From Ginglymostoma cirratum (taxonomy: Eukaryota): 64,000 nt of DNA. The stretch is taken from the NCBI GenBank assembly GCA_024137785.1, contig JAHRHZ010000139.1, positions 38,052,717 to 38,116,716 of the forward strand. The letters run 5' to 3'. A program made the translations under genes and the position numbers. The notes under the pieces were generated by a model. The model made no database searches. It worked only from the letters and a program-made list of their open reading frames with translations, and was not told the origin of the DNA. Positions 3,048-54,140 of the stretch are shown here, piece by piece. Numbering within the stretch: position 1 is the first letter of the stretch; the number at the start of each line of letters is the position of its first letter.

Positions 3048-3172
3048 AAACCAAAATAACTACGAATGCTGTAAATCGGGACAAACAGAAATTGCTGAAA
3101 AAGCTCAGCAGGTCTGGCAGCATCTGTGATGAAAAAAGAGTTAACGTTTCGGGTCTGGTGACTCTTCCTTGT
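3048..3172 (-). mobile_element. Mini Penelope-like element (family B 3' end) with a degenerate hammerhead motif
   Basis: Perfect 14-bp TSD cactccctttttaa (3034-3047 and 3173-3186). Minus strand starts aaggaagagtcaccagacccgaaacgttaa. Confidence 0.75.
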
Positions 3173-3249
3173 CACTCCCTTTTTAATTCTTAGATCTTTC
3201 TATATTGTTCATCATTCCGTTCCCTGTCTCTTTTATACCACTACTCTCT

Positions 3250-3640
3250 TTCATTGCAGTTGACTGACCACTTTTTTTTAATATTTGTTTCTGTTGCTTC
3301 GGTTTCCTGTTCGTCTGGGTACCTTTTCCACTCCTCTATCAAACTACTATTGCAAAGCTGTTTCTGGCTTCAAACATTGTACTCTCCACCAATCCTCAGC
3401 CCTTGTGCACATCTAGTTCTTACCACTTCTTCACTTTGTCGTCAGCTTTCTAGCCCTAAACTGTGGAATTCTCCTCATTAACATCTTTCTCTCTTGAAAT
3501 TAGTGTTAAGTCAAACCTAAAAATTGAGAAAGAGGTAGGTTTTTGGATCGCCTGCCCTAGTATCTCCCTGTGATTGGGTATCAGATGAAGACCCTTGAGA
3601 CCTCTGTTAAACGTACTATTTAAGTGCAAGTTTTTTTAAA
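3250..3640 (+). mobile_element. Decayed L2-like LINE 3' end
   Basis: cagctttctagccctaaactgtggaattctctc... and a tail ending ctattttaagtgcaagtt-like; resembles 31700-32080. Confidence 0.5.
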
Positions 3641-4157
3641 CCATCTAATTAATTTTCAATAAAGCCATTACATTGTATGCCAGAGTAAGGTAAGGGTTTA
3701 CGAAAAATGCACAGTGCAATGGGTGCTGGGGTAATCCTGGAAAAATGATGCACTGATGCTTACTATGCTGTATACCAACATATCCCATTTATTGCTGTCA
3801 TAAAGTTAATTAAATGTGTGAGATAGGTATATGTCTCTTATTTTGATACTTTCTTTAATTGAGACAACATAAAGCCTTTCCAGTTTGAGCGATAGCACTG
3901 ATAAAAGCTATACCCAAGGATGTGGATGTCATTTTGGTGGTTGGAGCATTGTCTGTGGATAAATGGACAAAGTTCCCATTATGATAAACATTAACTATAA
4001 TTATTGGGCAATAGCTTTAACAAAGAATACATAAACTAAAATTCACTCCCCTCTCCGTCAGAATTTTAACAGCTGTTGTGATTTGGTCTGCATGTAAATC
4101 CACTGCTGAATTCTGGGAATCATAACATGTCTTCCACAGTTAATATTCAGTCACCTA

Positions 4158-4253
4158 CAAAAATAGAAATTGTTAGAAAAGCTCAGCAGGTCTGGCAGCA
4201 TCTGCAGAAGGAAGCTGGAGTTAATGTTTCGGGTTGAGTGACCCTTCCTCGGG
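4158..4253 (-). mobile_element. Mini Penelope-like element (family B)
   Basis: 12-bp TSD ttcagt(c/t)accta (4146-4157 and 4254-4265). Minus strand starts ccgaggaagggtcactcaacccgaaacatt, a hammerhead remnant. Confidence 0.72.
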
Positions 4254-4327
4254 TTCAGTTACCTATGTTGAAGAAAGACTTTATAGAGGCATTTTGTATT
4301 TAGAAATGAATTGTTCTCACAGTATTA

Positions 4328-4540
4328 GAGATAAAAGATACTGCAGATGCTGGAGAATCCGAGATAACAAGGTGTGGGGCTGGATGAACACAGCAGGCCA
4401 AGCAGCGTCATAGGAGCAGGAAAGCTTGACGTTTCGGTCCACATTTCTGATGGAAGGGTCTAGGCCCGAAACGTCAAGCTTTCCTGCTCCTAGGATGCTG
4501 CTTGGCCTGCTGTGTTCATCCAGCTCCACACCTTGTTCTC
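4328..4540. mobile_element. Fold-back (palindromic) mini PLE, family A
   Basis: 4366-4437 is a near-perfect reverse complement of 4466-4537 (72-bp arms). Arms match the 3' end of the PLE at 59201. TSD ttgttctcaca(g/a)tatt (4311-4326 and 4533-4548). Confidence 0.88.
4444..4478 (+). ncRNA. Hammerhead ribozyme motif with a 1-nt insertion in the core (CUGAUG-g-A)
   Basis: tttCTGATGGAagggtctaggcccGAAACGTCaag. Confidence 0.6.
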
Positions 4541-5149
4541 ACAATATTGTTGCTTGGCCTATGATTTTAAGCTCTTGCCACTACCACTGCTGCTTCATGT
4601 GTTGTTATAAGATGTGAGCCCTTTTTGTTGTTTCCTGTCTTCCCCCTTGAAGTTTTTTCTCTTTCATGAGTTCATTCCTACAAACTTGCTGTCTTTTGCT
4701 ACACAACATTGTTGCATTTTCTAGTCTCTCCTCAGTGGTAAATAGCTTTATTACAATGTTGCTATAAACCTGTCCTTGCTATAAATCTCTCCTTGCTGGC
4801 TTGCTTTCTGTTTTAAGTGCCCGTTCCCAAAAAAAATTTAATTTGAGGATTTGGTGACTCTCATCCTTTTTCAGTAAAATTATTGAACTTCTGATTTTAT
4901 TTGAACATTTTCCTCAGTGAATGATGAACAAGCTGAAGTCTTGATGGCAGTAGTGGCAGGAGCCTGGTGGTCCCACTTTTACAATCAGCTGGACTTTTCA
5001 CTTCAGTCAATGGAGAGGAAATTCAGGCTGGGTTTTTATTGGGTGAGCGGCCTGTGTTGATTTGATTTGACCATGCTAACCCTGTGGTACTGGTCACATG
5101 GCCAGCACAGACCAACCAGAGGCAGAAAGAAATGATACAACCACATGTT

Positions 5150-5370
5150 CAAAGAATCTTACAGTTAGAATGTGGAACATCTTACAAAGAGTGTTTTGAG
5201 GTGAGTAGTGTAGAAGTATTTAAAGAAAAGCTAATAACCACAAGAGGGAGAAAAATGGAAGGTTACACTAAGAGGGAAGGCTCATGCACTCTCCATGAAA
5301 GCCAGAATAGACCGGTTGGGCTGAATGGCCTCTTCCTGTGCTGTAAATTCAGTGTACTATCTGCAGTCAA
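5150..5370 (+). mobile_element. CR1 3' end fragment
   Basis: gaatgtggaac...tttaaagaaaagcta...ttgggctgaatggcctcttcctgtgctgtaaatt, a typical CR1 tail. Confidence 0.6.
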
Positions 5371-5856
5371 ATAGACAACCTTACAAAACTTCCTTCATGT
5401 TATCTTGAGCACGAATAAATGACGGTTTGAGTGGAAAGATAGAGAAAGGTGTGTCCTATTGGAATAGGATGCTGAGTCAGGGTCCATGAAGATGTGGAGC
5501 CCAAGACCAGGATTGAGAAAGTGAACCGAACAGGCCATATTGTGGTTCCATGATGTGCTGTGGTATGATTGGCCTGTGCTGATCATCTGACCGACTGCGA
5601 TGGTAATCGTGCAAATGATGGAAAGCTCTTTATCATCAAATATTCAGTACAAGTTTACAATCTTACACCAAACTTTTAATAATGTTCTTAGTCATGACAT
5701 TTTAGTTATTTTTAAAACTTTAAAAAAATATATTTTCAAATGATGTTTTGGGGAAAAGGTAATATTTTTCTTAATATACTTTGTCAAAAGATTCTATATT
5801 TGAATTAAACGTTTCAATGAGAGATTTGTTTCTAATTACTGGACATAAATGCCTGT

Positions 5857-5887
5857 AATAAAATGTTTGTTTGTATATCTCAATAAA
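5857..5887 (+). terminator. Tandem AATAAA signals; candidate distal poly(A) site of SLC35G1
   Basis: AATAAA at 5857-5862 and 5882-5887, ending an AU-rich stretch with UGUA motifs. Confidence 0.5.
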
Positions 5888-5987
5888 TATGAAACACTTA
5901 AACACAAACCACTGATTTCCATATTATCTTATCACATGGTTGGACAGTTGCTGCTGATATTCTGTGATCTAACATTCCCTTCCTATT

Positions 5988-8365
5988 ATAACAAGGGGTA
6001 GAGCTGGATGAACACAGCAAGCCGAGCAGGAAAGCTTGACATTTCGGGCCTAGACCCTTCTTCAGAAATGGGGGAGGGGAAGAGGGTCCTGAATAAATAG
6101 GGAGAGGCGGATAGAAGATGGATAAAGGAGAAGATAAGTGGAGAGGAGACAGACCGGTCAAAGAGGTGGGAATGGAGCCAGTAAACGTGAGTGTAGGTGG
6201 GGAAGTAGGGAGGGGATAGGTCAGTCCAGGGAGGACAGACAGGTCAAAGGGGCAGGATGAGGTTAATAGGTAGGAGATGGGGGTGGGACTTGAGGTGGGA
6301 GGAGGGGATAGGTGGGAGGAAGGACAGGTTAGGGAGGCGGGGACGAGCAGGGCTGGTTTTGGGATGCAGTTGGGGGAGGGGAGATTTTGAAGCTTGTGAA
6401 GTCCACATTGATACCATTGGGCTGCAGCGTTCCCAAGCGGAATATGAAATGCTATTCCTGCAACCTTCGGGTAGCATCGTTGTGGCATTGTAGGAGGCCC
6501 AGGATGGACATGTCGTCTGCGGAATGGGAGGGGGAGTTGAAATGGTTTGCAACTGGGAGGTGCAGTTGTTTAGTGCGAACCGAGCGCAGGTGTTCTGCAA
6601 AGCAGTCCCCAAGCCTCTGCTTGGTTTCCTTGATGTAGATGAGGCCACAATGGGAACAGCGGATGCAGTATACCACATTAGCAGATGGGGCCTGGGATTG
6701 GGGTGTGGGGGCAGGTGTAGCACTTCCTGTGGTTGCAGGGAAAATTTCCAGGTGTGGTGGGGCTGGAGGGGAGTGTGGAGTGGACAAGGGAGTCACGGAG
6801 AGTGTGGTCCCTCCGGAAGGCAGATAAGGTTGGGGAGGGAAAATTGTCTTTGGTGGTGGGGTCGGATTGCAGATGGCAGAAGTGTCAGAGAATGATGCAT
6901 TGAATCTGGAGGTTGGTGGGGTGGTACGTGAGGACGAGGGGGATTCTGTTTTGGTTTTTATTGCGGGGAGGGGGTTTGAGGGATGAGTTGCGGGAAATGC
7001 GGGAGACACGGTTGAGGGCGTTCTTGACCACTGAGGTGGGGGGCGGGGGTGGGGGTCGGAAGTTGTGGTTCTTGAAAAACGAGGACATCTGAGATGTACG
7101 GGAGTGGAATGCCTCATCCTGGGAGCAGATGTGGCGGAGGCGAAGGAATTGGGAATAGGGGATGGCATTTTTTGCAGGAAGGTGGGTGGGAGTCGGTGTA
7201 TTCTAGGTAGCTGTGGGAGTCGGTGGGCTTGAAATGGATATCGGTTTCTAGGTGGTTACCCGAGATGGAGACAGAGAGGTCCAGAAAGGAGAGAGCGAGG
7301 CATTGGAGACGGTCCAGATGAACTTTAGGTTGGGGTGGAAGGTGTTGGTGAAGTGGATGAACTGTTGGAGCTCCTCACGGGAGCACGAGGCGGCGCTGAT
7401 ACAGTCATCAATGTAACGGAGAAAGAGGTGGGGTTTAGGGCCAGAGTAGGTACAGAAGAGGGATTGCTCTACGTAACCTACAAAGAGGCAGGCATAGCTT
7501 GGGCCCATGCGGGTACCCATGGCCACCCCTTTTGTCTGTAGGAAGTGGGAGGAATTGAAAGAGAAGTTGTTGAGGGTGAGGATGGGTTCGGCTAAGCGGA
7601 TGAGGGTGTCAGAGGAGGGGGAGTGGTCGGGCCTGCGGGACAGGAAGAAGCAGAGGGTCTTTAGGCCATCAGCATGGGGAATACAGGTGTACAGGGACTG
7701 GACGTCCATAGTAAAAATGAGGTGTTGGGGACCGGGGAATTGGAAGTTCTGGAGGAGGTGGAGGGTGTGGGCGGTGTCACAGATGTAGATGGGGAGTTTT
7801 TCTGGACCAAGGGGGAGAAAATGGAGTCGAGATAGGTGGAGATAAGTTCGGTGGGGCAGGAGCAGGCGGAGACAATGGGTCGACCAGGGCGGTCAGGTTT
7901 GTGGATTTTGGGAAGGAGTTAGAAGTGGGCGGTGCGGGGTTGGGGAACGATGAGGTTGGAGGCTGTGGGTGGGAGGTCACCTGAGATGATGAGGTTGTGG
8001 ATGGTTTGGGAGATGATGTTTTTGTGGTCGGGTGTGGGGTCATGATCAAGGGGGTGGTAGGTGAAGGTGTCGGAGTGTTGGCGTCTGGCCTCAGCAATGT
8101 AGAGGTCAGTGCGCCAGACTACAACTGCGCCTCCCTTGTCTGCGGGTTTTATGGTGAGGTTGGGATTGGAGCGGAGGGAGCGGAAGCCTGCACGTTCTAT
8201 GGGGGAGAAGTTGGAGTAGGTGAGAGGGGTGGAGAGGTTGAGGCGACTGATGTCACGACGGCAGTTGGAGGTGAAGAGGTCGAGGGAGAGTAGGAGGCCT
8301 TGGGGTTGTGTCCAGGAGGAGGGGGTGCGTTGGAGGTGGGAGAAGGGGTCAGTAGAGGGAGGGTT
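5988..8365 (-). mobile_element. Penelope-like retroelement (Neptune-type RT + GIY-YIG endonuclease), 5'-truncated and frameshifted
   Basis: RT motifs [28 protein letters not shown] and LRYIDDC (7248-7709). Endonuclease NVVYCIRCSHCGLIYIKETKQRLGD..EHL. Pyrimidine-rich 3' UTR and terminal hammerhead. Confidence 0.93.
6035..6068 (-). ncRNA. Minimal hammerhead ribozyme motif (CUGAAGA core, one stem III substitution)
   Basis: Minus strand tttCTGAAGAagggtctaggcccGAAATGTCaag. Confidence 0.6.
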
Positions 8366-8461
8366 AGGCTCACAGTTAAAGAAGTAAGCGTGGAGGCGGA
8401 GGCCTCTTTCCTCTGAGTCACTTCGTCTGTTTTACATTTGCAACTTTTAAAAATGCAACTT

Positions 8462-8515
8462 CTTTTTTTTTCTCTCTTCTCTCTTCTCTCTTCTCTCTTC
8501 TCTCTTCTTCTCTCT
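8462..8515 (+). repeat. (TTCTCTC)n pyrimidine microsatellite
   Basis: Direct reading. Confidence 0.9.
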
Positions 8516-8614
8516 GTAGCCAGTAAGCGGCTGAGCAGAAATGAAGTTGCACTCCCTCAAATGATTTCTGCCCTCTGTCTTTTTCCTCTCTTCAGAACTG
8601 CACTTAATAAGGAA

Positions 8615-8740
8615 ACGTAAGGGTGTAGGGAAAAGGCAGGAAATTGAAGAGGAGGATTACCAGATCAGCCATGATCTCATTAAACAGCGGAACAGACTCT
8701 GGGCTGAATGGTCTACATCAGCTCCTCCATATTTTATCTT
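8615..8740 (+). mobile_element. CR1 3' tail fragment
   Basis: agggaaaaggcaggaaattg...gatcagccatgatctcatt...gggctgaatggtctac. Confidence 0.6.
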
Positions 8741-10332: not shown

Positions 10333-10846
10333 ATTAGAATCCCTACATTGTGGAAGGAGGTCATTCGGCCCATCTAGTCCACACCAAGCTTCTGAAAGGC
10401 ATCCCACCCAAACGCACAACCCTACCCCTGTTGTAATCCTGCATTTCCCATGGCTAATTCACCTAGACTGCACACCTTTGGACTGCGGTGGGAGGGGGTA
10501 GGAAATCAGAGCACCTGGAGGAAAGCCAAGCAGACGCGGAGAGAATGTGCAAACTCCATGCATACAGTGGCCCGAGGCTGGAATCAATCCTGGGTCCCTG
10601 GTGCTGTGAGGCAGCAGTGCTAACCACTGAGCCGTTGAGAGATAGTAAGAACTGCCGGTGCTGGAGTCTGAGATAACACAGTGTGGATCTGGAGGAACAC
10701 AGCGGGCCAGGCAGCGTCAGAGGAGCAGGCAAGTCGACGTTTTGACTCGGGACCAAAACGTCAGCTTTCCTGCTCCTCTGATGGTGCCTGGACTGCTGTG
10801 TTCCTCCTGCTCTACACTATGTATATCCCTAAGCCATTGTGCTGCC
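10333..10846 (-). mobile_element. tRNA-derived V-SINE (HE1-like), its 5' end interrupted by a PLE hairpin
   Basis: Minus strand ggctcagtggttagcactgctgcctcacagcaccagggacccagg...ggagtttgcacattctc with a CR1-type tail. The first bases of the head resume at about 10832-10846. Confidence 0.8.
10639..10828. mobile_element. Fold-back mini PLE (older family A variant)
   Basis: Inverted arms around the apex gacgttttgactcgggaccaaaacgtc. Diverged TSD ctgagccgttg / ctaagccattg. Confidence 0.8.
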
Positions 10847-15074: not shown

Positions 15075-15099
15075 CCCTGGGCCTAGAGAATACCAGCCT

Positions 15100-16100: not shown

Positions 16101-16190
16101 TGTTTGCCTGCATTGATCAGCACAGGTACAGATGTGAACCCTCAGATCTGCAATTGTCTGTATGCACTCTGTGTAAGAAGAAAGTGGTTT

Positions 16191-16523
16191 CATAGAATCT
16201 CTACAGTGTGAAACCAGGCCATTCAGTCTGTCAAGTCCACACTGACCCTCCAAAGAGCATTCCCACCTCGACCCACTCCCCTACCCTGTCCCTGTAACCC
16301 TGCCCTACCCATGGCTAACCCATCTAGCCCGCACATTCCTGGACACTACAGGACAATTTAGCATGGTCAATCCAACTAACCTGCACATCTTTGGAGTGTG
16401 GGAGGAAACTGGATCACTCGGAGGAAACCCACGCAGACACAGGGAGAATGTGCAAACTCCACACAGACAGTCGCCCGAGGGTGGAATCAAACCCAGGTCC
16501 CTGGCGCTGTGAGGCATCAGTGC
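16191..16523 (-). mobile_element. V-SINE (HE1-like)
   Basis: Same family as 10333 and 34839; tRNA head remnant, V domain and tail tctatg. Confidence 0.85.
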
Positions 16524-17269
16524 GGGGGACCTTGAGGGATTGAGAGGGTCCGAAATAAAATGTGGCGATGTATGGCCAAAAGGCTGGAATCAGTGGATAT
16601 CAGGATGTGAATGTGCTCAAGGCACATTCAGTACAGCCTCTAGCAGCACTGCATCTAGTCACGCCTCAGGGTTGATAGTGCATTGATATCCTGAGTCATA
16701 TTCCCCTAGTCGTAATGCTCATTAAAATCCTAAAAGGGAAGCCGAAGAGGAAAGTGCAAAACCACAAGGTGTGGAGAAATCAGCAGAGGACCTGCCCTGA
16801 GGCCGATCACTAACTTCAACAATGATAACCTCATCCTTTAATAACTCAATCTCAGTGTAGAATTTCCACAAACAACTATTGAACTTAAATTAACCTTGGA
16901 GGCTGTGTGGATAAGAATTTTAACAAATCTGAATTCTAGCGTTCTGTTATTTAAACCATCACATCAGATAACGATCTGTTTGATAAAGTGTTATTTTGCT
17001 TTGATACTCTTTCCTAAATACGAAGAAATCTGGAGAAGCAGTCTATTGTCTAACATGATAAGAGAGAGTGAAGACATTCACATCTATTGTCCAGTGTGCA
17101 ATTTATGTGTGTAACGGTTTGATCTGACTTGTACTAACCCATTCCAAGCAGAGCATAAAGACATAAAGAGATAAAAGGTACTGCAGATGCTGGAGAATCC
17201 GAGATAACAAGGCGTGGGGCTGGATGAACACAGCAGGCCAAGCAGCATCGTAGGAGCAGGAAAGCTTGA

Positions 17270-17369
17270 NNNNNNNNNNNNNNNNNNNNNNNNNNNNNNN
17301 NNNNNNNNNNNNNNNNNNNNNNNNNNNNNNNNNNNNNNNNNNNNNNNNNNNNNNNNNNNNNNNNNNNNN
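17270..17369. other. Assembly gap (100 N), probably a false or negative gap
   Basis: 17223-17269 and 17370-17416 are the same 47 bp. Confidence 0.85.
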
Positions 17370-17424
17370 GATGAACACAGCAGGCCAAGCAGCATCGTAG
17401 GAGCAGGAAAGCTTGATTTCATCA

Positions 17425-17458
17425 TTTCTGATGAAGGGTCTAGGCCCGAAACGTCAAG
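17425..17458 (+). ncRNA. Intact minimal hammerhead ribozyme motif
   Basis: ttt-CTGATGA-a-GGGT ctag GCCC-GAAAC-GTC-aag. Stem I uuu/aag, stem II 4 bp, palindromic loopless stem III (ACGU). Confidence 0.72.
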
Positions 17459-18529
17459 CTTTCCTGCTCCTACGATGCTGCTTGGCCTGCTGTGTACATC
17501 CAGCCCCACACCTTGTTATCTCATAAAGACATAAACTCTGGATTCGAAGGGAATCAAGGCTTGATTTCATTTTCTGGAAATTCCTATTTTGAAGTCGCAC
17601 TCACAGGGAGTATGGGTTAACAAAGTATTGGCCTACACCTGGTTACCCTTCCATCAGATTTAATGAACAGGAAATCGGGGAGTGCAGATTTAAAAAGTAT
17701 TGTAAATAAATTAAGATTATCTCACTGGCTCCTTCGTTTTTCAACACGTCTTCCCAGCATTGGCGTTCCTTGCAGCCACATAAAGCAAGAAATACGTCAA
17801 TAGCCAAAATCCTATCATCTCATTGTAAGACACATATCTGAGAAGATTTACATGCCTGGCATCATTTCTAGTGAAAGATGCCAGAGGTAGCAGGAGAGAC
17901 CGGAAGACTGACAGAAAGGCATTCCAGTGTGTAATTCCAATGGAAAATCTAAGCTATGGTTTCTGCAATGTGTGCCAGGATTACTGCAAAATTCAATGGA
18001 AAGATTGGCAAAATTCATATCTTCTCTGTGTATCCTATGTCATAACATTGGAATTCAAATATCTTACCTTTTAACGGCCAGAGTGGTCAGCTGATTGTGA
18101 CCCGTGATCCCTGGGCTTTTGGAAATCGGAATAGTTAAGAGTGGCCGACCTGTCTCATCATTGAGAGGGACGGGAGGGGACGGCACTGACAATTGTAGCC
18201 AGTACATAATGCATGTCTGTATAACACATTAGCTTGGATTACAGTACCAGCCAAGACTGGGCCACCCGTGTGACAGCTATGAGCAGTCTGACTTGGCTCA
18301 CTAGTAGCAATGTGGTTCCTACAGATAGTAACTGAACCAACCAGACCCGAGCCCCCGTTTCCTGTCAAGATCTACAAATCTAATTAAATTTCTGCTGACC
18401 TCCTGACATGCCATTTTTAAACACTTCTCAGATATCAATATTTAAACACTATACTTAAAAAAAATTTTAGAAACAAATTTACTGCAAGAAACTAATAAAA
18501 ATCGGTTCCTGAGAAGTGATTCTAGAAGT

Positions 18530-19060: not shown

Positions 19061-19066
19061 CAGTTG

Positions 19067-22072: not shown

Positions 22073-22099
22073 TACATCTGGATTATTGTCTGTTTTTGG

Positions 22100-25640: not shown

Positions 25641-25679
25641 AGCACAAAGTTTTCATTGTTACTGTGGGAATGTTGCTAT

Positions 25680-27576: not shown

Positions 27577-27715
27577 CTCCAAGATAGAGTCATTATGAAA
27601 TCAAAATGTTAACCTGATTTCTCTCTGCACACATGCTGCCAGCCCCTGCTGAGGTTTTCCATCATTGTTTTTGTTTGTTTCAGATTTCCAATATCTGCAA
27701 TATTCCGCTTTTATA
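27577..27715 (+). mobile_element. Old mini PLE (family B), the only plus-strand copy seen
   Basis: gatagagtcattatgaaatcaaaatgttaac...atgctgccagcccctgctgaggttttcc...tttcagatttccaatatctgca. Confidence 0.6.
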
Positions 27716-32487: not shown

Positions 32488-32580
32488 GAGATAACAAGGT
32501 GTAGAGCTGGATGAGCACAGCAGGCCAAGCAGCTTCAGAGGAGCAGGAAAGCTGACATTTCGGGCCTAGACCCTTCAGAA
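32488..32580 (-). mobile_element. Single-arm mini PLE (family A)
   Basis: gagataacaagg...gctgacatttcgggcctagacccttcagaa. Flanking duplication aattttaat (32476-32484 and 32584-32592). Confidence 0.8.
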
Positions 32581-34838
32581 AAAAATTTTAATTCTGATCT
32601 GGCAATCGTAACCAAATGCTCAATGTTTGGCTTCTCTGCAGCCACTGGGGGAGTGTTTTTCCTTTAATTTCTGCATGTGTCTGATTGTTTTCCATTTTGT
32701 GATGTTTCCCTACTGGACATTGATCAGGTTGAGCATTCAGTGGGGACACGGTATCAATGCTTAATGAGTGTTTAGGCAGAATACAGCTGGGGAGAGGTAA
32801 AGTGTGGTGTGTTGGTGAAATAGCAACAAGGGTAAGAGAATGCGATTGATTGTGAGAGGGAATGTCAGCCTTTCCAGCTCTGGACAGATGGCTTCGCGGC
32901 TGCTATGCCTTTCCTTTGCCGGGGGCTGGGGTGGGGTGGGGGTCAACAACAGATTGCCAACACTTGTCCGGGCACACAGCGGCATTTTAAAGCTGTCATG
33001 GGTGCAAGGAATGCTGGTCTTTTGGCAGATATCCACTAAGTGCTGAGCTGTTCTAAGAATGGTGCATGATGTGAAGGAGATAGAATCAGATGCTCCATGC
33101 CATGGTAGTAGTTAATGCAGCAAGTTTTAAGACCTGGTGAGAAATCTCACCACTCCACATGGCAGAAATCCCTCAAAATACCGGACGCAATTTGCCACTT
33201 AGCTGAAAAGAAACATAAGATTTAGCCCACTGTGCCCAGCTTGAACTTGAAAACAAATGATTTGGGGAGGGGGGTGAGGGTGACTGCTACCAATTGATTC
33301 ATATCGTTTTCTTGAGGTGTGATGCAAATGAGGAGCCTTTCCCTTGGGCACTGTGTAATGGGAAATCATGTGAACAACGCTCTTAACGTTTCCCATCCAT
33401 TTTAATGGATGGAAGTCAAGCACTATTTTGCCCTCTACTACCTATTAGTTGCAATGATAATGAGTTTGATAATAGTGGCAATCAACCTCTAATGATTAGT
33501 GTACTACAGACTCGCAAATGCCAATATGAACTTAGAAAATCAACACACTAGGCTTCTGTTTAAACAGAAATAGCAGCAAAAGCATATGCTATCAAAACCA
33601 GACAGCCGGAAAACTCTGAACTCATGTATGCATCCTGCACATTAGCGTCAACTTTCCTAATTTTCTTCACGGGTAATCTGCCTTTTTTTTTAAATAGAAA
33701 ATTTTAATAACATGCTTATTCACTTATTTCTGCTCTCCAGGAGCAACGCCCACAGGTCTTTTCAGAGTTAAATAAAATATATGTTTCTGCTTTTCAGCAG
33801 GCGTTGGTGATTTTGCCACAAGTAAAATTTGCAAAGAAAAGAACATTTTCTGGCATGGTTTTACGGTGAAAAGCAAAGTAGAATATTTGTCGCTTGGAAA
33901 CGGAGATGAAAAGCTTTTATTTGCATAAATGAATTACACAAGAATGTGCGTGGGCGTGTGGAATAATTAATTTTCCTGAAAATGCCAAAGTGAAATTTGC
34001 AGCGAATCGAGCTCATTTATCCAATCTCTTCAAATCCAGTGTAAAGAATTCCATTCGTATGGCAATTATGTGCATTGTTTAGTAGACAATAATATATCAA
34101 CCAGATTCTGTAACAAATCCCTATAAATCATCCTTTTGATTGTTTTGGATGGGAATAGTAGCACAATGCCAAACTTTAAAGCTCTTTTTCAGCTGGATTC
34201 TCATTTGCAATAACTCGAGTCAATTTTTTGTACTGACAGAACTTTTTTTAAACCTCTTCTCTTCAAATGACAGCTACGGACACAATTTTTTTTATTGTAA
34301 GTGCCTAATTGAAGCTGACTAAATGCTGCAATGGTTATTTCTCTACGGGTTATAGTTGAAACAGAGAGTTCCAGGCAGAGAAATGGGTGGAAAGAGCCAA
34401 TTTGTTCTTGATAATTGAATGTAATGAGAAGTACTGAGAATGCAGAGCCGAAGCACATGCAGAGAAGTGACTGGAATTATTGAATATTGGCTTCTTTTCT
34501 AAGTGAAGTGGATTCACTGCAGCTAGTTTGACGAGTAATAATAATCAGATCATTGTCTACTTGGATCAGGATTTGACATTTCGGTATTTTGCTGTGCGGA
34601 TTGAGGATTTTATTGCAAAATAATGAATAATAAGGAGCTTCAGTTGTTTACAGCTTATTATCACTGGGACTGAACAGTTCTTGTGATTTGGCACTTGAAC
34701 AAAATTACACCCGGATTGCTTGTCTCCAACTAACTGGTTTACATAGATTTTGGGAAATGTAAACGCGTAACAGTTTCCTCTCCAGTATGGTTACCTTGCT
34801 TGTCAAAAATACAACTTTTGTTCACTGCACACAGGTTT

Positions 34839-35185
34839 CATAGAATACCTACAGTGTGGAAACAGGCCATTCAGCCCGTCAAATCCACACCAAACCCTCC
34901 AAAGAGCACCCCACCCAGGGTCACAACCCCTACCCATAACCCTGCATTTCCAGAGGCCAACCCACCAAGCCTGCACATCCCTGGACACAATGGGCAATTT
35001 AGCATGGCCAGTCCACCTAACCTACACATCTTTGGACTGTGGGACGAAACTGGAGCAGCTGGAGGAAACCCACACAGACACAGGGAGAATGTGCAAACTC
35101 CACATAGTCACCTGAGGGTAGAATCAAACCCCAGTCCCTTGCACTGTGAGGCAGCAATGCTAACCACTGAGCCACCATGCTGCCC
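34839..35185 (-). mobile_element. Full-length V-SINE (HE1-like)
   Basis: Minus strand gggcagcatggTGGCTCAGTGGttagc...GGTTTGATTC (A and B boxes), V domain, CR1-like tail. Confidence 0.88.
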
Positions 35186-36379: not shown

Positions 36380-37730
36380 GAGATAGTATGAACTGCAGAT
36401 GCTGGAGTCAGTGTGGAGCTGGAGGAACTCAGCAGGCCAGGCAGCATCAGAGGAGTAGGAAAGTTGACGTTTCGGGTCAGGACCCTTCTTCAGAAATGGG
36501 GGAGGGGGAAGGGAGCTCAGAAATAAATAGAGAGACGAGGGGTGGGGCTGGGGAAGATAGGTGGGATGCTAATAGGTGAGTGCAAGTAGGGAATGGTGGG
36601 AATTGGTCAGTGAGGTGGGAGGAGCAGATAGGTGGGAGAGAAGATGGGCAGGTTGTGTCAGGTCAAGGAGGCGGGGATGAGAGGGAGTGTTGGTCATGGG
36701 ATGAGGCCAGGGGGGCGGTGGGGATACTTTGAAACTAGTAAAGTCCACATTGAGACCATTGAGTTGTAGGCTCCCAAGGTGGAATATGAGGCGCTGCTCC
36801 TCCAGTTTTCAGGTGGTGTCATTGTGACATGGAGGAGGCCCAGGATGGACATGTCACCCAGGGAGTGGAAGGGGGAGTTGAAACAGCTTGCGACCGGAAG
36901 GTGTTGTTGTTTGTTGCAAACAGAGCACAGGTGCTCTACAAAGCGGTCTCCGAGCCTCCGCTTGGTCTTACCGATGTAGAGGAGGCCACATCGGGAGCAG
37001 CGGATACAATAGACCACATTAGAGGATGTGCAGGTTAACCTCTGTCTGATGTGAAAGGATTGTTTGGTGCCTTAAATGGAGGTGAGGGGGGAGGTGTAGG
37101 GGCAGGTGTAGCACTTCCTGCGGTTGCGGGAAAAGACGCTGGGGTTAGTGGGGATAGTGGGGAATATGGAACGGATGAGGGCGTCAAAGAGAGAGCGGTC
37201 CCTACGAAAGGCAGCTAGAGATGGGGAGGGAAATATCACTTTGGTTGTGGTGTCAGATTGTAGGTGGCGGAAGTGGCGAAGAAAGATACGGTGGAAAAGG
37301 AGGTTGGTGGGGTGATATGTGAGGACAAGGGGGATTCTGTCTTTATTTTTGTTGAGGGGAGGGGATGTGAGTGCAGAGGTGCGGGAAATGCAAGAAATGC
37401 AGTTGAGGGCATTTTTGATCATCGAAGGGGGGAAGTTATGGTCCTTGAAATAAGAGGACATCTGGGATGTGTGGGAGTAGAATGCCCCATCTTGGGAGCA
37501 GACGCGGCGGAGGTGCAGGAATTGGGAGTAGGGGATCGCATTCTTGCAGGAAGGTGGGTGAGAGGAGGTGTGGTCTAGGTAGCTGTGGGAGTCGGTTGGC
37601 TTGAAATAGATGTCGATTTCGAGGCAGTCACCAGAGATGGAGACAGAGAGGTCCAAGAAGGAGAAGGTGGTATCGGAGATGGTCCAGGTGAATTTGAGGT
37701 TGGGGTGGAAGGTGTTAGTAGAGTTGATGG
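36380..37730 (-). mobile_element. Penelope-like element (Neptune-type), 5'-truncated
   Basis: YFKPTDSHSYL..SSHPPSCKNAIPYSQF, RRKCYTCP, VYCIRCSRCGLLYIGKTKRRLGDRFVEHL. Diverged TSD ctgtaggcca / ctataagtca. Confidence 0.92.
36463..36496 (-). ncRNA. Minimal hammerhead ribozyme motif
   Basis: Minus strand tttCTGAAGAaGGGTcctgACCCGAAACGTCaac. Confidence 0.65.
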
Positions 37731-39619
37731 GCTATAAGTCAGTTAGCTCAACATCTGTCATAGGGAAAATGTTAGAAGCTATTATTAAAGTTGTTATAAC
37801 AGGGCATTTGGATAAGTTCAAGGTAATATGGTTTTTCCAAAGGAAAATCATGTCTAACTAATTTATTGGAGTTCTTTGAAGAGATAAGCTGTGCCGTAGA
37901 TAAAGGGGAATAAGTGGATGCATTGCACTTAGATTTCCAGAAAATATCTGATAAGGTGCCACATCAAAGATTATTGTGGAAAATAAAAGCTCATGGAGTA
38001 AGGGGTAACAAGTTGGCATGGATAGAAGAATGGCTTGCTTACAGGAAGCAGAGAGTAGGAATAAGTGGGCCTTTTTCAGGCTGGCAGGGTTGCATGAATG
38101 GTGTGCCACAGGAGTCAGTGATGGAGCCTCAATTCCTTACAAGCTGTATAAATGATTTGGCCGAAGGGATCGAAGGTATGGTAGCTACGTTTGCTGATGA
38201 TACAAAAACAGAGAGGAAAGTGAGTTGTGAAGAGGACAGAAGCAGAATTCAAAGGGATATAGATAGGTTAAGTGAGTGGGCAAAGATTTGGCCAATGGAG
38301 TACAATGTGATAAAGTGTAAAATTGTCCACTTTGGCAGAAAGAATAAAAAAAAACTCATATTACTGAAATGTGAGAGGTTGCAGATCTGAGACGTAGAGA
38401 GATCTGGGTGCATGAATTGCAGAAGATTGTTGTACAGGTGCAGCAAGTAAGCTGGAAAGTTCATAGAATGTTATGTTTTATTGCAAGAGAAATTGTATAT
38501 AAGGGTAGGGAGATCAAACTTCAGTAGTACACACATTGATGATACCTCATCTGGAGTACCGTGTGCAGAACTGGTCACTGTACCTACAGGAAAATGCACT
38601 GGAAGCAGTTCAGAGAAGGTTTACTGTACTAATACCTGGAATGAGTGATTGCTTTATGAAGAAAAGCTAGACAGACCAGGCCTCTATCCTCTGGAGTTTA
38701 GGAGAATCACAGGTGACTTAATTGAAACATATACGATCCTGAGGGGACTTGACTGGGTGCATGTTAAAAAGATGTGAGATGATCTAGAATTAGGGGTCAT
38801 AATTTTAATATAAGGGGTCGCCCATTTAAATTAAAGATGAGAAAATAGTTTGTGGTCTGGGGATTGCGAGTCTGTGGAATTCCGTTCTTCAAAAGGCATT
38901 GGATGTAGAAATATTTTACGGTGGTGGTAGATAGATTCTCGGTTACCAAGGGGATGAAAGGTCATTGGGAATGTGCAGGAATGTAGAGTTGAAGGTAAAC
39001 TCAGATTAGCCATGAATTTATTGAATGGCAGAGCAGGCTTGAAGAGCCGAGTGGCCTATTCTTGTTCCTTATTTGGATGTTTATGTGTCATAGAGTTTGT
39101 TGGACTTCACAAACAAAGAATTTTGGGGGAAAGCAGTACAGCATTTTGCAGAAGGTGAAAGTAGTATGAAAAATAAAAAAAACCTTACATCCAAAAAAGA
39201 AGAAAAATAAAAGAATGACACTTGCGTCTGTTCCCCTCTATCTATAATAATTATAACAATGCCTACTGCTTCAAAAATATTTAATTTGCTATAACATGTT
39301 TTGGGATATCTAATGGCCACGAATGTTAATATAAGTCTTTCTTTCCAGAAACCTGTACATTTAAATATTCCCTATCTGAGGTAGCAGCCATTGGTATAAG
39401 CCTTTGGATCTCAAATGGGATGTTTGCCACATTTCCTGATTCTTTTTAAAAGTGTACATGGTTAAAAAGTACTGTTTGGATTTATTTCCGGATGATAGTC
39501 TACATTGAGGCGAGTAAGTAACAAAATACAAAGAAAATAAAACATAAAAAACAACAACAAAGTACATTTTGTTCACTAACTGTTGTAGTTCCTCTCGCAG
39601 TATGCATTTTTATAAATGA

Positions 39620-40830: not shown

Positions 40831-40959
40831 TTTTTTAAAAACACGCATCACAAAAAATAGGTAATCAGATAAATATTTACCTAATCTTTGTATTGTGGTG
40901 GGAGATCGTGACACAGGTGTTGGATAAGCAAACCAGAGACCGAAGCTGAAATTGTATCA

Positions 40960-41084
40960 GAGATAAAAGGTACTGCAGATGCTGGAGAATCCGAGATAAC
41001 AAGCATGGGGCTGGATGAACACAGCAGGTCAAGCAGCATCATAGGAGCAGGAAAACTTGACGTTTCGGGCCTAAACCCAAGGGT
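40960..41084. mobile_element. Family A mini PLE, probably a hairpin, running into the gap
   Basis: gagataaaagg...cgtttcgggcctaaaccc followed by aagggt, the start of the inverted arm. Confidence 0.8.
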
Positions 41085-41484
41085 NNNNNNNNNNNNNNNN
41101 NNNNNNNNNNNNNNNNNNNNNNNNNNNNNNNNNNNNNNNNNNNNNNNNNNNNNNNNNNNNNNNNNNNNNNNNNNNNNNNNNNNNNNNNNNNNNNNNNNNN
41201 NNNNNNNNNNNNNNNNNNNNNNNNNNNNNNNNNNNNNNNNNNNNNNNNNNNNNNNNNNNNNNNNNNNNNNNNNNNNNNNNNNNNNNNNNNNNNNNNNNNN
41301 NNNNNNNNNNNNNNNNNNNNNNNNNNNNNNNNNNNNNNNNNNNNNNNNNNNNNNNNNNNNNNNNNNNNNNNNNNNNNNNNNNNNNNNNNNNNNNNNNNNN
41401 NNNNNNNNNNNNNNNNNNNNNNNNNNNNNNNNNNNNNNNNNNNNNNNNNNNNNNNNNNNNNNNNNNNNNNNNNNNNNNNNNNNN
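41085..41484. other. Assembly gap (400 N)
   Basis: Run of N. Confidence 0.99.
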
Positions 41485-41800
41485 GAGACCGAGGCTAATG
41501 CTTTGTGGATAGTGGTTCTGATTCCATCACAGAAGCCGATTTCAATCAATGTAAAGGTCTGGAAAATAAAACCAGTCTCAGGAATGGTGTAATGAAAATG
41601 TCATCCATTACTTTAAAACGCATTTGATTTACTAATACCTATGAATGAAGGAAATGTGCCACCTTTACCTGGTCTGGCCAACATGTCATTCCAGAGGCAC
41701 AGCTGTAGTTGACTGCCCATTGAAATGCCCTAGTGAGACAACTAGTTCAAGGGCAGTTCGGGATTGGAAACAAGTACTGCCCAAGTCCCATGTAAGTATG
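41485..41800 (+). mobile_element. Old SINE (family of 40483)
   Basis: gaaggaaatgtgccacctttacctggtctggcc..agttcaagggcagttcgggattgg. Confidence 0.55.
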
Positions 41801-48199: not shown

Positions 48200-48460
48200 T
48201 TGTCATAAGATGTGAATATAGCTGGTAACACCAACATTTATAATCTATCCCTAATTGCCTTTGAGAAGGTGGTGGTGAGCTGCTTTCTTGAACTGCTAGT
48301 GTCTTTTGGGATAGGGATAGTCACAGTGCTATGAAGAAAATTCTAGTATTTTGACCCAGTAGCATTGAAGGAATGGTGATGTTTTTCCAAGTCAGGATGG
48401 TGTGTGGCTTGGAGGGGAACTTGCAGGTGGTCACTTTCCCAGCATCTGCTTGCTTTTTAT
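48200..48460 (-). mobile_element. LINE 3' end (family of 21750)
   Basis: gagaaggtggtggtgagctgc..caagtcaggatggtgtgtggcttggagggg. Confidence 0.7.
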
Positions 48461-50379
48461 AGCTAATACTAATGGCTAATATTGTCACGTGGCCCTCCTT
48501 TCTCAAAGGTTACTCAGCACACTTCCTCTGTCGGATGTAGTCTCACTGATCACTATTGTAACTAACTCAGCCCAGTTCAATTGTATCTTAAGCCAATTCC
48601 TTCTCATGGTTGGAGACCTTGTTCCCTCCTCCCATTGTCACTGACAATTAATATGATGCTTCTTCATATTCTGCTGTAACACCTCACTTCACCTAACATT
48701 GGAAGACTCTTATTGGAATGCTTGTGAGATCCCCACTAGTTTGGGCAGTGGAGTTGTGACTTGGGGACTACTTATACTCTTGTTCAGAGACAACAGACAT
48801 GGTGCAGCTATATCAATGATTTAAAAGTAAATTGTGACTCGCCAATGCATTTTTATTGTGGAGCCTAGAAATTTCTTCTGGTTACTCTCTCTCATTTTCT
48901 GCAAGCTATGTTTCCTGTTGTTTGAGTACAGCTCATGATCTTCCTTCCTTCTCTATAAAATCCAATTATTTTAACATCTACCAAGTGTATTCAAGGATTT
49001 TCAGACTTGGAAACTAGGTTCAACCTCACAACATAGCTGTGACCTGAATTTTACCACAACCTGGAGTACAAATGTTTCCTGTGATATATAATGCCATCTG
49101 GATATGAAGGACTTTTCTCCCAGATGTAGAGCTTTGGCTGCGAATAGATGCATCCAAAATAGTTGGTGATTACCGTGATAATGATAGCATCTAAATTTCT
49201 GTGAACTGGGCTGATTTGACCTGGATCTCATTGAAATCTAAAGGACTCTTGCAATTTGCAATGATCTGTTTATGCTATTTCCGTAGCTGTGACCTCATCA
49301 CGGGTTTCCTTTACTCAAAAACTGAGCCGGAATTTTATTCTTTCAGTCTCATGAACCATGTCACTAAACAGTTTTTTTTAGAAGCTTTGGAAAAAGTGCA
49401 GAAAGTGTCACTATGTTCTTCAGTCCTTAATTTCTCAAATGAAATGCAAAAGTATTCCATTCTCCCTCTTATAAGAATCTTTCAGTACTATATATGTGAG
49501 AATGTTAGGACATGTTCATCTGCAGGAAGCCTTATCAAAACTTTATGTGCATCTCTCCAACAGGGAAGACTATATGAAAATGCTCAGATCCTGCAATATT
49601 ACATTAGCCTTCCCCAAATACGTTATCTCACCCCTATCCTTGACTTTGTAAGATAAACAATTGAATTCCGTTTCCACTTCAATTCCACTGATCTAATTAA
49701 TCAATTGGCATTTATTTGGAGTCTATTGTGTTCTTCATTATCATCTCCAGGGCCAATTTTTGCATCACCTGCAAATTTACTCATACCTCCTACATTCTAG
49801 TCCAAATCATTGATTTTATATACCACAAAGAAATAAGGCGTACTTTAAAACTTCACAAAAAAGCCTCCAGTTACAAAAACAAATCTATCAACCATTAATC
49901 ATCCTTTTTGCATTGTATGGTGATTATCTAGTTCTTAATTCATTTTGGCTTTAGACTAGAACGCTTTAACTTTAGCAATTAAAGCTTCTTAAATGTAGAT
50001 AAACAGGGACATTTTGTTGAGAAACTCATTGAATACAACAGATATTAATGCAGTTCGAACAGGCTTGAATTTAATTTCACTTAGTTTTTAAGTTTTTTTT
50101 ATCTTAAAGGTCAAAGAGAGAGGTAGAAACACTGAAAGATTGTCTGACATATCTTTTAAAATGTGGATAGAGCCATGATGTCCACAATTATTCTAGCGAA
50201 GGATCTTAACTTAGGAATGAAGTTTCAATGAAATGGGTGTTTCTTCACAGGGGCCCATAGAGTCAGAAGAAAGTGTCAAACTTTGAGTGCTACTTTCTGA
50301 TTCTGTAATGCATATGAATAACCAAGTAAAATAACTTGTTTGCCTTTCTGTTTGAGGATTAATGGCCTGATGCTTTTTA

Positions 50380-50780
50380 AAATCATGTGTGGGTCATGGG
50401 TGTCATTAGCTGGCCAGTATTTATTGCCCATCTCTAGCTGCCCTTGAGAAGGTGGTGGTGAGCTGCCTTCTGGAACCATTGCATTCCACCTGCGGTGGGT
50501 TGACCCACAATGCTATTAGGTAGGGAATTGCAGGATTTTAACTGAGCAGCAGTGAAGGAACAGTGATGTATTTCCAAGTCAGGATTGAGTGTGGCTTGGA
50601 GGGGAACTTGCAGGAGATGGTGTTCTTGTATATCTGCTGCCTTTGTTCTTCTAGATGGAAGTGGTCATTGGTTTAGAAGGTCCTATCTGAGGATCTTTGA
50701 ATTTCTACAATGCATCTTGTAGATAGTACACGCTGTTGCTAGGTGGTGGAGGGAGTGGATGCTTGTGGATGTAATATTAA
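50380..50780 (-). mobile_element. LINE 3' end (family of 21750)
   Basis: Close match to 21750-22072. Confidence 0.75.
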
Positions 50781-51329
50781 TCTAGTTATAATTAACAAAT
50801 ATGCTATGTTTTATGAAGGTAGATTGTTTTACTCGGTGAATTTTGGGAGGATTAATTAACTGCAGATTGGTCCTTGTGCAGTTTGCAGTTCACTGTTGGG
50901 AGAGCTAAAGGAGATAAATAGCAGTCAGGCCTATATTTAAGCAGAGGAAACACTAATGCTTTTTCTCACACACTGAAATGTGGATGAAATTCCATTTCGG
51001 TTTGAAAGTTATGGGGAAAGAAACTGGATGACTTGCTTATGTTGAAACTTGAATGAAATCTAGTGATCTTCACAAAGTCTTGTGGAAGAAATTATTCTGC
51101 AGAGTTAGCTTGGAACCTGGGAAGGCAACTAGAACAGCACTGAAGCATCATTAATCTTGAGGTATTATATAAAAGTCTTGAAGATGAGCTGAACCACTGA
51201 CTAGAATTAAAGCCAAAATTAAGTCTGGATGTTTCCTTGTTGAAAAGGGGTTAACATAGTTTACCCAATAGAATCAAGTATTTTGAGATTGTGGAGCAGC
51301 AAATGGAAGCTAGAGTACTTGGGGAAATA

Positions 51330-52890
51330 AACAATGAAATCTTAGTATTCATGTTACAGAGGAGGAGATGCTGGACTTCTTAAAACACAAAGGTGTATAA
51401 ATCCCTGGGAACTGATCAGGTGCATCCCAAAACTTTGAGAAGCTAGACAAGTTTACTGGGCCTCTCTCTTTCTGATAGCCATGGGTGAGGTGCCAGAAGA
51501 CTGGGGATTGGCTAATGTGGCATTATTTAAGAAAAGTGAACTATAGACTAGTGAGCCTGACATCAGTGATGGGTAAGTTTTTTTTTTATTGGAGGGGATT
51601 CTGAAGGACAGGATCTGCACGTATTTGGTGAAGCAAGGACTGATTAGGGATAATCAGCATAGCTGTGTGCATGGGGGATCTTGTCTCACTAGCTCGATTG
51701 AGTTTTTTTTTTGGAGAAGTGACAGAATATTGAAGGCAGAGTGGTCGATGTTGACTATATGGACTACATGGCATTCGACAAGGTTCTGCATGGTAGACTG
51801 GTTGGCAAGGTTAGATCACGTAGAACCTAATGAGAGCTAGCCAATTGGATACCCAGTTGGCTTGAAGGTAGGAGACAGGGTGATAGTGGAGGGTTGATTT
51901 TTCAGATGAGGCCCGTGACCAGTGATGTGCCATAAGGATCAATGCTGAGTCCACCGGTTTTTGTTTTTTAGGTAAATTATGTGAATATAGGAGGTATGGT
52001 TAGTAAGTTTGGAGAAGATGCCAAAATTGGTGTAGTGGACAATGACAGTTACCTTGGAGTACAAAGGGACCTTGATCAGATGGGTTGATGGGCTGAAGAA
52101 TGCAGGTGGAGTTTAATTTAGATAAATGTGAGGTTTTGCATTTTGGTAAGGCAGATCAGTGCAGGATTTAGACACTTAATGGTAAGGTCCTGGGTAGTGT
52201 TGCTGATTAGACACCTTGGGATGCAGGATTATAGTTCCTTGAAGGCGGAGTAGGCTAGTGAAGAAGGTGTTTGGTACACTTGTCTTTTGGTCAATGCATT
52301 GCGTATAGGAGTTGGGATGTCATGTTGCAACTGTATAGGACATTGGTTAGGCAACTTTTTGAAGACTCTGTGTTCAATTCTGATCACCCTGCTATTGCAA
52401 AGATGTTAAAATTGAAAGGGTGCAGAAAAGATTTGACTGTTGCCGGGGTTGGAGGGTTTGTGCTAGAGTGAGATGCTGAATAGGCAGGGGCTATTTTCCC
52501 TGGAGCATCAGAGACTGAGGGGTGACCTTTTATAGATGTTTCTAAAGTCATGAGGGGCACAAATAGGATGAAGTGCCAAGGTCTTTTCCCCTGGGTAGGG
52601 GAGCCTAAAATCAGAGGGCATAGTTTCAAGGCGAGAGGAGAAAGATTTTAAAGGAGCCTGAGTGGCAACCTTTTCATGCAGAGGGTGGTGCGTGTATGGA
52701 ATGAGCTGCCAGAGGAAGTTGTGGAGGCTGGTACAATTACAATATTTAAAAGGCACCTGGATGGGCACATGAATAGGAAGGGTTTAAAGGGATATGGGCC
52801 AAATGCTGGCAAAGGGGACTAGATTAATTTTAGGATATCTAGTTGGTGTGGATGAGTCGGACCAAAGGGTCTGTTTCCGTGCTATACAGC
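51330..52890 (+). mobile_element. CR1 RT and 3' end, decayed
   Basis: YRLVSLTSV, LIRDNQHS..GSCLT, YRSWDVMLQLYRTLVR; tail ggaccaaagggtctgtttccgtgctatac. Confidence 0.85.
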
Positions 52891-53589
52891 TCTCGCTCGA
52901 ACTTGCATTAAAAGTCCAGAGGCATAATAAGATTATTGTCATAATGTGCTGATTTTTGCCCTTCAGTTTAAGGTTTGATTCTGAGATTGTGTAATTTGGG
53001 ACTTCTTTAAGCGAGGTACAGCCTGACCACAACGATGTGTGTAAATTTATACTTTTAAAAGGTTGATAAAGGTGGATATGTTTTGTGTGGCTAGTTACCT
53101 CTGGAAGCATTGTGTCCCATGTCTTTATTAATTTATGGATTTGTACAATCTGGTTAAAAACCAGAACTGTGTGGAAGTTTGGCTGTAAATTGATGGACTA
53201 AAAAATTTGAAGCCAATTTGAGAACAGTGTAACTGGGATATGAGGTGTTACATTTTGCATTGTCTTGGCCTGGGCTTGTTTATTTGCTATTTGAGTGTCA
53301 TTCTGACCTAGATGCTAAACTTGTCATATATGTTGTTCAGCCTTGGCTTGGGCTTGCTGGTTTTGTTTGGTGTTGGTCTTGGCTTGTGTGCCTAAAGTCG
53401 TGGAATTGGAAACAATAGTTTAAAGATCTGTTTGTGTAAAATGGGGACTGTGCTTATCCAGTATGATGGACTGTGTGTGTGTGTGCACGTTGCTTAAACA
53501 TACAAGCTGCTCACCACATTGAAGTATAGGGGTCTAGGACTCCTGCCTGGTGTAGGTTTTTTTGTGCAGGTAGCAAACTTCTTGCCTGA

Positions 53590-54140
53590 AACGGAAAGAA
53601 AACAGAAGTTGCTGGACAAGCTCAGCAAGTCTGGTAACATCTATGGGGAAGAAAGCAGAGCCAATATTTTGAATCTAATCACTGTCTTCCTCAGAATAGC
53701 AAGTTTTCCTGAAGCCAAGGTTGGGGGGAGGAGCGAGAGTGAAAGTAAACGGGGTGATTATGGGTTGTAAGAGTGGAACTGGAGGAACACAGCAGGCCAG
53801 GCAGTATCAAAGGAGCAGGAAAGTTGATGTTTCGAGTCGGGACCCTTCTTCCTGGATTGTGCACCAATACACAAGTTGAATAAGTGATAAGAGGCTAAGA
53901 GTAGGAGAAGTTGGGTGGCGATACTGAATGCAACCCATTTAATGTGATAATGGGCCTGTGAGTATGGGAGAATAGGTGACTGTGTGCTAAAAGCAATCCT
54001 TGTCATAACAGGACTGGGCATGGGGATGGGAAAACCTGCAGAGATGGAATCAGGCTCTAAAGTTATTGAACTGTGTTGAGTCCTCGAGGCTGGAGGGTCC
54101 CCAAGTGGAAAAGCCTGATGCCTTTCTTTTTCTCTTAACA
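53590..54140 (-). mobile_element. Old PLE 3' fragment (family B) carrying a nested family A mini-copy at 53769-53852
   Basis: acagaagttgctggacaagctcagcaagtctgg...; the nested copy ends at gacccttcttc with flanking tgg(g/a)ttgt (53761-53768 and 53853-53860). Confidence 0.65.

Follow-up and report, generated by a model that had tools for sequence, protein, structure and literature searches.

Short Penelope-like insertions in Ginglymostoma cirratum end at the front edge of a terminal hammerhead motif, a probable transcript start

Penelope-like insertions in the window

The stretch of DNA analysed here (the window) comprises 64,000 nucleotides of the Ginglymostoma cirratum assembly GCA_024137785.1 (contig JAHRHZ010000139.1, forward-strand positions 38,052,717 to 38,116,716) and carries long copies of Penelope-like elements (PLEs) together with short insertions, here called stubs, that consist of the hammerhead-bearing PLE terminal repeat. 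An earlier note on the window had proposed that eight such stubs stop or fold back inside the ribozyme. The stubs are 5′-truncated insertions of three endonuclease-bearing Penelope-like families, and they are abundant, with about 224 terminal-repeat arms per Mb in the genome sample described below. The earlier note had counted two families, and we found three types of terminus: A (59201-type), B (36380-type) and C (3048-type).

The three long copies in the window, starting at 59201, 36380 and 5988, all lie on the minus strand. The family A reference copy (59201..61169, −), a 5′-truncated element delimited by self-alignment and translation and with an RVT_1 match in a sister copy, consists of the end of the reverse transcriptase (RT), a linker, a GIY-YIG-type endonuclease, the 3′ untranslated region and a terminal repeat with a tail. 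Its minimal hammerhead motif (59297..59332, −), whose activity is predicted, places the predicted RNA +1 at 59332, the core nucleotide C3 at 59328 and the predicted cut between 59301 and 59300; the optional 33-bp tail occupies 59201..59233 (−). The second family A copy (5988..8403, −) has no tail and holds an RT fragment at 7251-7892, and the family B copy (36380..37729, −) has a tail, a hammerhead core at 36493 and a TATA-like hexamer at about 36524-36529. The earlier note had all three copies ending in a hammerhead repeat; the core is exact in 59201 and 36380, but the GAAAC part is mutated in 5988. A second RT fragment (37914-38387, +; RVT_1 E 7e-10) adjoins the 36380 element on the opposite strand.

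The terminal repeat contains the parts of a minimal hammerhead (CUGANGA, the bulge, stem II, GAAA, a palindromic stem III and NUH), and an Rfam scan gave no hammerhead match at E ≤ 1 and only two miRNA-like matches, which came from hairpins. Element positions (t) are given in the RNA sense, counted from the A (+1) that precedes the C of CUGANGA by four bases. The core then begins at +5, and the cut lies after t32 in families A and B and after t34 in family C; both +1 and the cut are predicted from sequence.

Family A long copies encode an RT fragment (RVT_1 E 4e-06, under the Pfam cut-off) followed by a YCI..C..LYIG-type (GIY-YIG-type) motif that was read in this family only, and their degraded frames gave no Pfam match to GIY-YIG or any other endonuclease family. 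Family A thus combines RT with a GIY-YIG endonuclease containing an internal CxxC, the trait of PLEs with a C-terminal endonuclease (C-terminal EN+ PLEs), and a CX2CxxC linker ahead of the endonuclease motif in the window translation points to Neptune/Nematis, whose linker has the form CX2-5CxxC, by comparison with PMC8557442. Assignment to Poseidon from the position of an ATG was dropped, the ATG being out of frame and the linker motif being of the Neptune/Nematis type. At loci L164, L175 and L167, the ATG in the hammerhead core opens a frame of 14 or 53 codons that is out of frame with the main open reading frame (ORF); the main ORF has its first Met about 45 nt past the tail. The terminal ~132 bp also stand ahead of the ORF, at locus L119 and at 12 near-full-length loci, the arrangement of a pseudo-long terminal repeat (pLTR). 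Histograms of 3′ ends revealed two preferred ends per family, 33-38 bp apart, which define the optional tail (33 bp in family A, between ends at d=1 and d=34-36).

Six of the eight listed stubs are as the earlier note described them, with weak target duplications in two, and the other two hold assembly gaps that the note does not mention. Four are single-arm insertions on the minus strand: 3048..3172 (family C with tail, truncated at t8 and flanked by an exact 14-bp target duplication), 4158..4253 (family C without tail, 5′ end at t5-7, 12-bp duplication with one mismatch), 32488..32583 (family A without tail, ending near t2 with an A run added, core shortened by a 3-bp deletion, 9-bp exact duplication) and 53770..53851 (family B without tail, 5′ end at t7), whose duplication is weak (8 bp, one mismatch) and below the calling criteria of the duplication script. 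The other four, which carry no strand assignment, are certain or probable head-to-head insertions. In the family A insertion at 4328..4540, the tail arm ends at about t20 and the no-tail arm at t0, with a flanking duplication of 14 bp (one mismatch); in the family B insertion at 10639..10828, the tail arm ends at t14 and the no-tail arm at t23 with a 2-nt overlap, and the duplication, scored by eye, is weak (11 bp, two mismatches). The family A insertion at 17168..17522, with arms at t25 and t0, contains 100 N at 17270-17369 plus a duplicated stretch, and a 14-bp exact flanking duplication is visible. Inspection by eye of 40949..41496 (listed earlier at 40960) revealed a family A tail arm ending at t13 and then a gap, probably a hairpin: 400 N occupy 41085-41484, only six inverted bases stand ahead of them and the second arm is not visible, with a probable 12-bp duplication at 40936-40947 and 41485-41496 (one mismatch). 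Eleven bases past the tail of this arm match, by eye, the sequence after the upstream repeat in full-length copies, and because they occur only there, the arm appears to have been copied from the 5′ end of a transcript. Two older family C stubs were absent from the earlier list, one at 53593..53696 (−; 78% identity, end at t3) and one at 27604..27714 (+; 82% identity, end at t28).

Distribution of 5′ ends

After the eight insertions in the window had been checked, we sampled the same genome. The sample comprised 160 stretches of 10 kb plus the window, of which 40 stretches were unreadable and 1.22 Mb was usable. It yielded 379 arms, and 233 were retained once four classes had been removed: arms of less than 85% identity, those adjoining N (35), those at the edge of a stretch (7) and those that had served as search seeds (39). 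Assembly gaps of 100 or 400 N often lie on head-to-head insertions. The earlier claim that the stubs are terminal-repeat copies with target duplications was borne out, as duplications flanked 18 of 115 single arms and 0 of 571 shuffled pairs, most single arms having none by the criteria used.

The 5′ ends of 83 of the 233 arms fell at t-2..+5, an 8-nt interval at the front edge of the hammerhead core. The ribozyme body held 48 of the other ends, and 5 came within 2 nt of the cut; a further 27 lay downstream and 26 upstream (t-3 to t-290). Expressed per 100 nt at risk, the end rate was 9.36 at t-2..+5, 1.07 in the ribozyme body, 0.51 at the cut, 0.32 downstream, and 0.45 and 0.14 upstream. Of 150 arms with ends in the range t-40 to t+40, the eight positions took 83 (binomial p ~1e-43), and the same peak was present at loci not picked by any search (56 of 151 arms; 56 of the 107 ends at t-40..t+40) and in each of the three families, being spread over t0-t4 in family C. 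The smooth spread that would have spoken against the earlier note was therefore not found; its view that the ends are tied to the hammerhead holds in that the peak is sharp, but the peak lies just ahead of CUGA and not through the ribozyme.

Exact pattern counts, made without alignment over the 4.36-Gb assembly, revealed the same step in family A. Matches left the element after t2 in 7,561 of 33,102 cases, after t1 in 3,212 of 25,541 and after t0 in 2,413 of 22,329, that is, in 13,186 of 33,102 (39.8%) over the three positions, and only 218 of the 7,561 departures after t2 continue into the upstream G-run, as mutated long copies. At the predicted cut, departures amounted to 931 of 33,303 (2.8%), point mutations included. 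Simple cleavage at GUC does not set the ends, as the earlier note had also judged.

The peak sits on a pyrimidine-A motif resembling the initiator consensus in all three families, with a TATA-like hexamer at -31 in families A and B and TATAAA at -29 in family C. After +1 in family A, an extra C of the cDNA (G in the sense strand) came next in 1,600 of 3,212 departures, the expected C share being 27% for flanking DNA and up to 40% for a C-rich partner arm (p 1.6e-29 versus 40%). Hand counts of the first 100 listed rows of each pattern gave an extra C in 46 for family C, 45 after t0, 24 at the cut and 7 after t2, and in the 1.22-Mb sample it was present at 12 of 19 ends at t0/t1 versus 6 of 26 at t>=6. 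In full-length L1 insertions an extra G marks the cap (PMC11702581). The promoter-like context and the extra G at the peak point to an RNA 5′ end and not to the fold, and the pile-up of 5′ ends 0-4 bases ahead of the core is likely to reflect run-off at a capped RNA start.

Several observations weigh against a capped start. The commonest end, t2, is one base short of the predicted +1, and 79 of the first 100 rows listed for it have A as the next base. Among 19 C cases inspected (30 loci), 5 repeat the final seven bases, an outcome that slippage alone could produce, and 1 is a mutated long copy; the C-rich partner arm may supply part of the C excess. The site is passed by 66 of the 233 arms, for which priming in the 3′ repeat may account, and the upstream repeat of near-full-length copies ends at +1 in only 1 of 12, 4 extending further upstream and 7 stopping short. 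Hairpins are undercounted, the 35 of 379 arms beside gaps having been dropped. No pile-up of starts or ends was listed in four of 15 candidate RNA runs, which were available as assembled contigs only and not as raw reads and speak neither for nor against the predicted start. The promoter of Drosophila Penelope is internal and TATA-less (PMC2377424), so the layout is not universal. Slipped and extra-base ends alike mark a template end. At L193, L200, L203, L211 and L216 (near 1523), the last seven cDNA bases are recopied once before the join, in the manner of telomerase-like realignment.

Head-to-head insertions and rival explanations

Of 43 short head-to-head pairs, or hairpins, 38 join a tail arm to a no-tail arm, and 18 of 39 long copies have the same inverted, 5′-truncated partner and one-sided tail of 30-40 bp, with arms of up to 2.5 kb. 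The hairpins grade without a break into longer head-to-head insertions of tail and no-tail arms, of which they are the shortest. In the 38 short pairs, the tail arm is the longer in 18 and the no-tail arm in 19, and the no-tail arm is also the longer in 7 of the 18 long pairs; pure snap-back of one cDNA is therefore rejected as the general route, and the arrangement fits priming on both strands.

One arm ends at t-3..+5 in 33 hairpins, and in 21 of these the partner arm ends inside the ribozyme, at t6-32. In these 21, the earlier note was right to place the apex within the ribozyme for one arm, but the other ends at the front edge. Junctions without an insert have an overlap of at least 2 nt in 14 of 23 cases, and the self-complementary stems of the ribozyme may supply pairing at the join, the one respect in which the structural idea of the earlier note survives. 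Among the 38 tail plus no-tail hairpins there are 37 different junctions, and in the recurring one the tail and no-tail arms are swapped between copies (L001 versus L031). Because almost all junctions are unique, the stubs are taken to be independent dead-end products and not a propagating unit. The two arms of a family A hairpin share 3.0 variants per 100 nt, compared with 1.1 for random pairs, and differ at 7 per 100, which would reflect either a common template or later conversion. Multi-part insertions with several template switches were seen at L206/L207, L159:5693-6537 and L171/L172; the two arms of L206/L207 each reach +1 and carry an extra C, and the 231 bp that bridge them contain sequence from the ORF start.

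These features can be accommodated in one scheme. With a Pol II start at +1/0, both transcript ends would carry the first ~130 nt, led by the ribozyme, and the main template would be uncut RNA. The enzyme would nick the two DNA strands 9-17 bp apart and prime at the tail or the no-tail site. Long copies would arise from priming in the 3′ repeat, and a start within the 5′ repeat, 100-130 nt from the RNA 5′ end, would yield a run-off cDNA of 100-132 nt, which may be likened to retroviral strong-stop DNA. One run-off cDNA joined to the flank would make a single-arm stub; two, one per strand, joined head to head would make a hairpin. Where one run-off end anneals by 2-3 nt inside the other and the overhang is trimmed, the apex would come to lie in the self-complementary ribozyme region.

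Among internally deleted copies, 11 of 17 rejoin ORF sequence to a repeat starting at t-6..+4, as expected from run-off followed by a jump. We consider it possible, but tentatively so, that the elements replicate in a strong-stop-like manner: the first 100-132 nt of cDNA would either integrate as a stub or jump, through the terminal redundancy, to the 3′ repeat, rebuilding the upstream repeat and promoter, and the hammerhead in the first 32-36 nt would be a switch by which the RNA decaps itself, yielding products that do not serve as templates. Five of the 17 deleted copies, all of family A (L163, L165, L173, L183 and L189), have their ORF-side junctions clustered 440-445 nt past the tail, following a T-rich run, and no two agree in the repeat-side junction. 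Their two direct hammerheads lie about 575 bp apart, and these copies may be a seed for retrozyme-like units or mark a recurrent RNA 3′ end.

Next, we weighed other explanations against run-off at a capped start. The proposal that the boundary is set by the ribozyme fold, as monomer or dimer, through RT stalling or strand switching, which the earlier note had raised, now seems unlikely. It draws on the coincidence of the predicted +1 with the 5′ end of stem I, on an end rate in the ribozyme body about three times that downstream, and on the partner arms ending at t6-32. But a helix should stop a 3′-to-5′ polymerase on entry, at t25-37, where there is no peak; the peak comes only once the whole motif has been copied, and the end rate drops sharply upstream of it. 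The predicted minimum free energy is no more stable than that of shuffles (z -0.55 to +0.73), and the excess in the body is mostly in paired arms (33/93 versus 15/100 unpaired), which fits trimming at the join. The fold also leaves the TATA spacing and the extra G unexplained.

Recombination between the two direct ~130-bp repeats of a full insertion could leave a solo repeat, or a hairpin if an inverted repeat lies next to it. This would yield target duplications and the same boundary, which would still be a transcript start, and solo pLTRs have been described (PMC3846280). Few copies in the sample include the ORF start, however, and one near-full-length copy in 12 ends at +1, compared with 83 of 167 arms ending at t>=-2. 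Repeats as short as ~130 bp recombine poorly, and we hold this origin to be improbable.

The earlier suggestion of a self-propagating, non-autonomous, retrozyme-like unit fared worse still and is very improbable. The density of arms, the derivation of retrozymes from PLE repeats (bioRxiv 2026.07.22.740005) and the existence of internally deleted copies with two ribozymes ~450-630 bp apart speak for it. Yet no head-to-tail arrays were seen, and only deletion derivatives hold two direct ribozyme-bearing copies; nor do the units share a boundary at the cut, where there is no peak, the junctions being almost all unique and the recurring one having its arms swapped. Stubs ending at t>=0 are without a TATA-like box, and the same architecture continues into the long copies.

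Ribozyme-cut RNA as the template, with 5′ ends marking the cut, is refuted as a main route and retains only a slender chance. The five arms ending within 2 nt of the cut, and five palindrome pairs centred just 3′ of it among the first 100 listed rows (for example, G000:C2:373432-373467), would fit, but these palindromes centre on a pre-existing 8-bp palindrome and may instead be microhomology joins; departures at the cut are rare genome-wide, and in the anole element no reads start at the cut and ribozyme mutants insert normally (PMC11167929). Least credible of all is the view that the peak is spurious, produced where alignments drop off in the G-rich run upstream or by the assembly of palindromes. 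It could appeal to the arms adjoining N gaps and to the low-complexity sequence upstream of families A and B, but long copies are aligned across the run, the same peak is present in family C, which has no such run, alignment-free counts agree, and duplications set single arms apart from shuffled pairs.

Elsewhere in the window, an open frame with EamA transporter domains (17-985, +; E 1e-26) is probably a host gene exon or retrocopy. Self-alignment revealed other dispersed repeats at 10335-10633, 16186-16523, 34834-35173 and 56256-56573, and as the pairs 19082-19606/52368-52893 and 21747-22073/50374-50697.

Relation to known elements and implications

Insertions of C-terminal EN+ PLEs are 5′-truncated, with pLTRs, an adjacent inverted copy and a one-sided tail of 30-40 bp (PMC8557442, bioRxiv 2021.04.23.441226; PMC3846280), and minimal hammerheads of metazoan PLEs are mostly found dispersed as single motifs or paired on opposite strands, a pattern ascribed to truncated PLEs (PMC4209133). 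Inverted repeats, tail, truncation and dispersed or opposite-strand minimal hammerheads are thus already published. The insertions described here agree with C-terminal EN+ PLEs in having RT followed by a GIY-YIG-type domain, an inverted partner, a one-sided tail, a hammerhead in the repeat and duplications of 9-17 bp; unlike in the available accounts, ORF-less products of 85-230 bp dominate and 5′ ends peak at one predicted capped start. The motif resembles published minimal hammerheads in the bulged base before stem II and the rudimentary palindromic stem III; PMC4209133 proposes cleavage and circularisation, whereas here the cut is not where insertions end, and the motif makes up what are predicted to be the first 32-36 nt of the RNA.

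In the anole Poseidon element PAc, two internal RT starts define the tail in vitro, both strands are cut and extended, product length is set by the RNA 5′ end and the ribozyme is dispensable (PMC11167929). Our elements would be alike in having two RT start sites ~100-150 nt behind the hammerhead, both strands extended and no need for cleavage, and they differ in the Neptune/Nematis-type CX2CxxC linker of family A and in a core ATG outside the main frame; the available PAc text reports no transcription start or cap run-off. Like non-LTR retrozymes (PMC7229834; bioRxiv 2026.07.22.740005), the stubs are short, ORF-less, hammerhead-bearing and PLE-related, but retrozymes are head-to-tail arrays with canonical ribozymes and circular RNA, whereas the stubs are single or head to head with unique junctions. 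L1 is similar in that complete 5′ ends bear an extra G, one cut supports two primings (twin priming) and the internal join shows microhomology (PMC11702581). We found no report of a cap-marked end peak at PLE hammerheads in the openly accessible literature searched, and PMC8969392 and PMC10018344 contributed nothing specific.

Retroviral minus-strand strong-stop DNA is a short run-off cDNA made from a 5′-proximal primer. The proposed reaction differs from the retroviral and L1 cases in that both primings would be target-primed at the two fixed sites of the element and the short product would be integrated.

PLEs are the closest relatives of telomerase RT, and how they form their repeats and what the hammerhead does have been posed as open questions (PMC2377424, PMC8557442). 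The tens of thousands of stubs in this genome are a base-level record of the PLE copying reaction: their ends predict a transcription start and argue that cut RNA is rarely copied, and they favour priming on both strands over fold-back and make the copying mechanism testable. Such stubs should not be annotated as MITEs (miniature inverted-repeat transposable elements) or retrozymes. If true, the strong-stop-like model would supply the missing step of pLTR regeneration and a role for the ribozyme.

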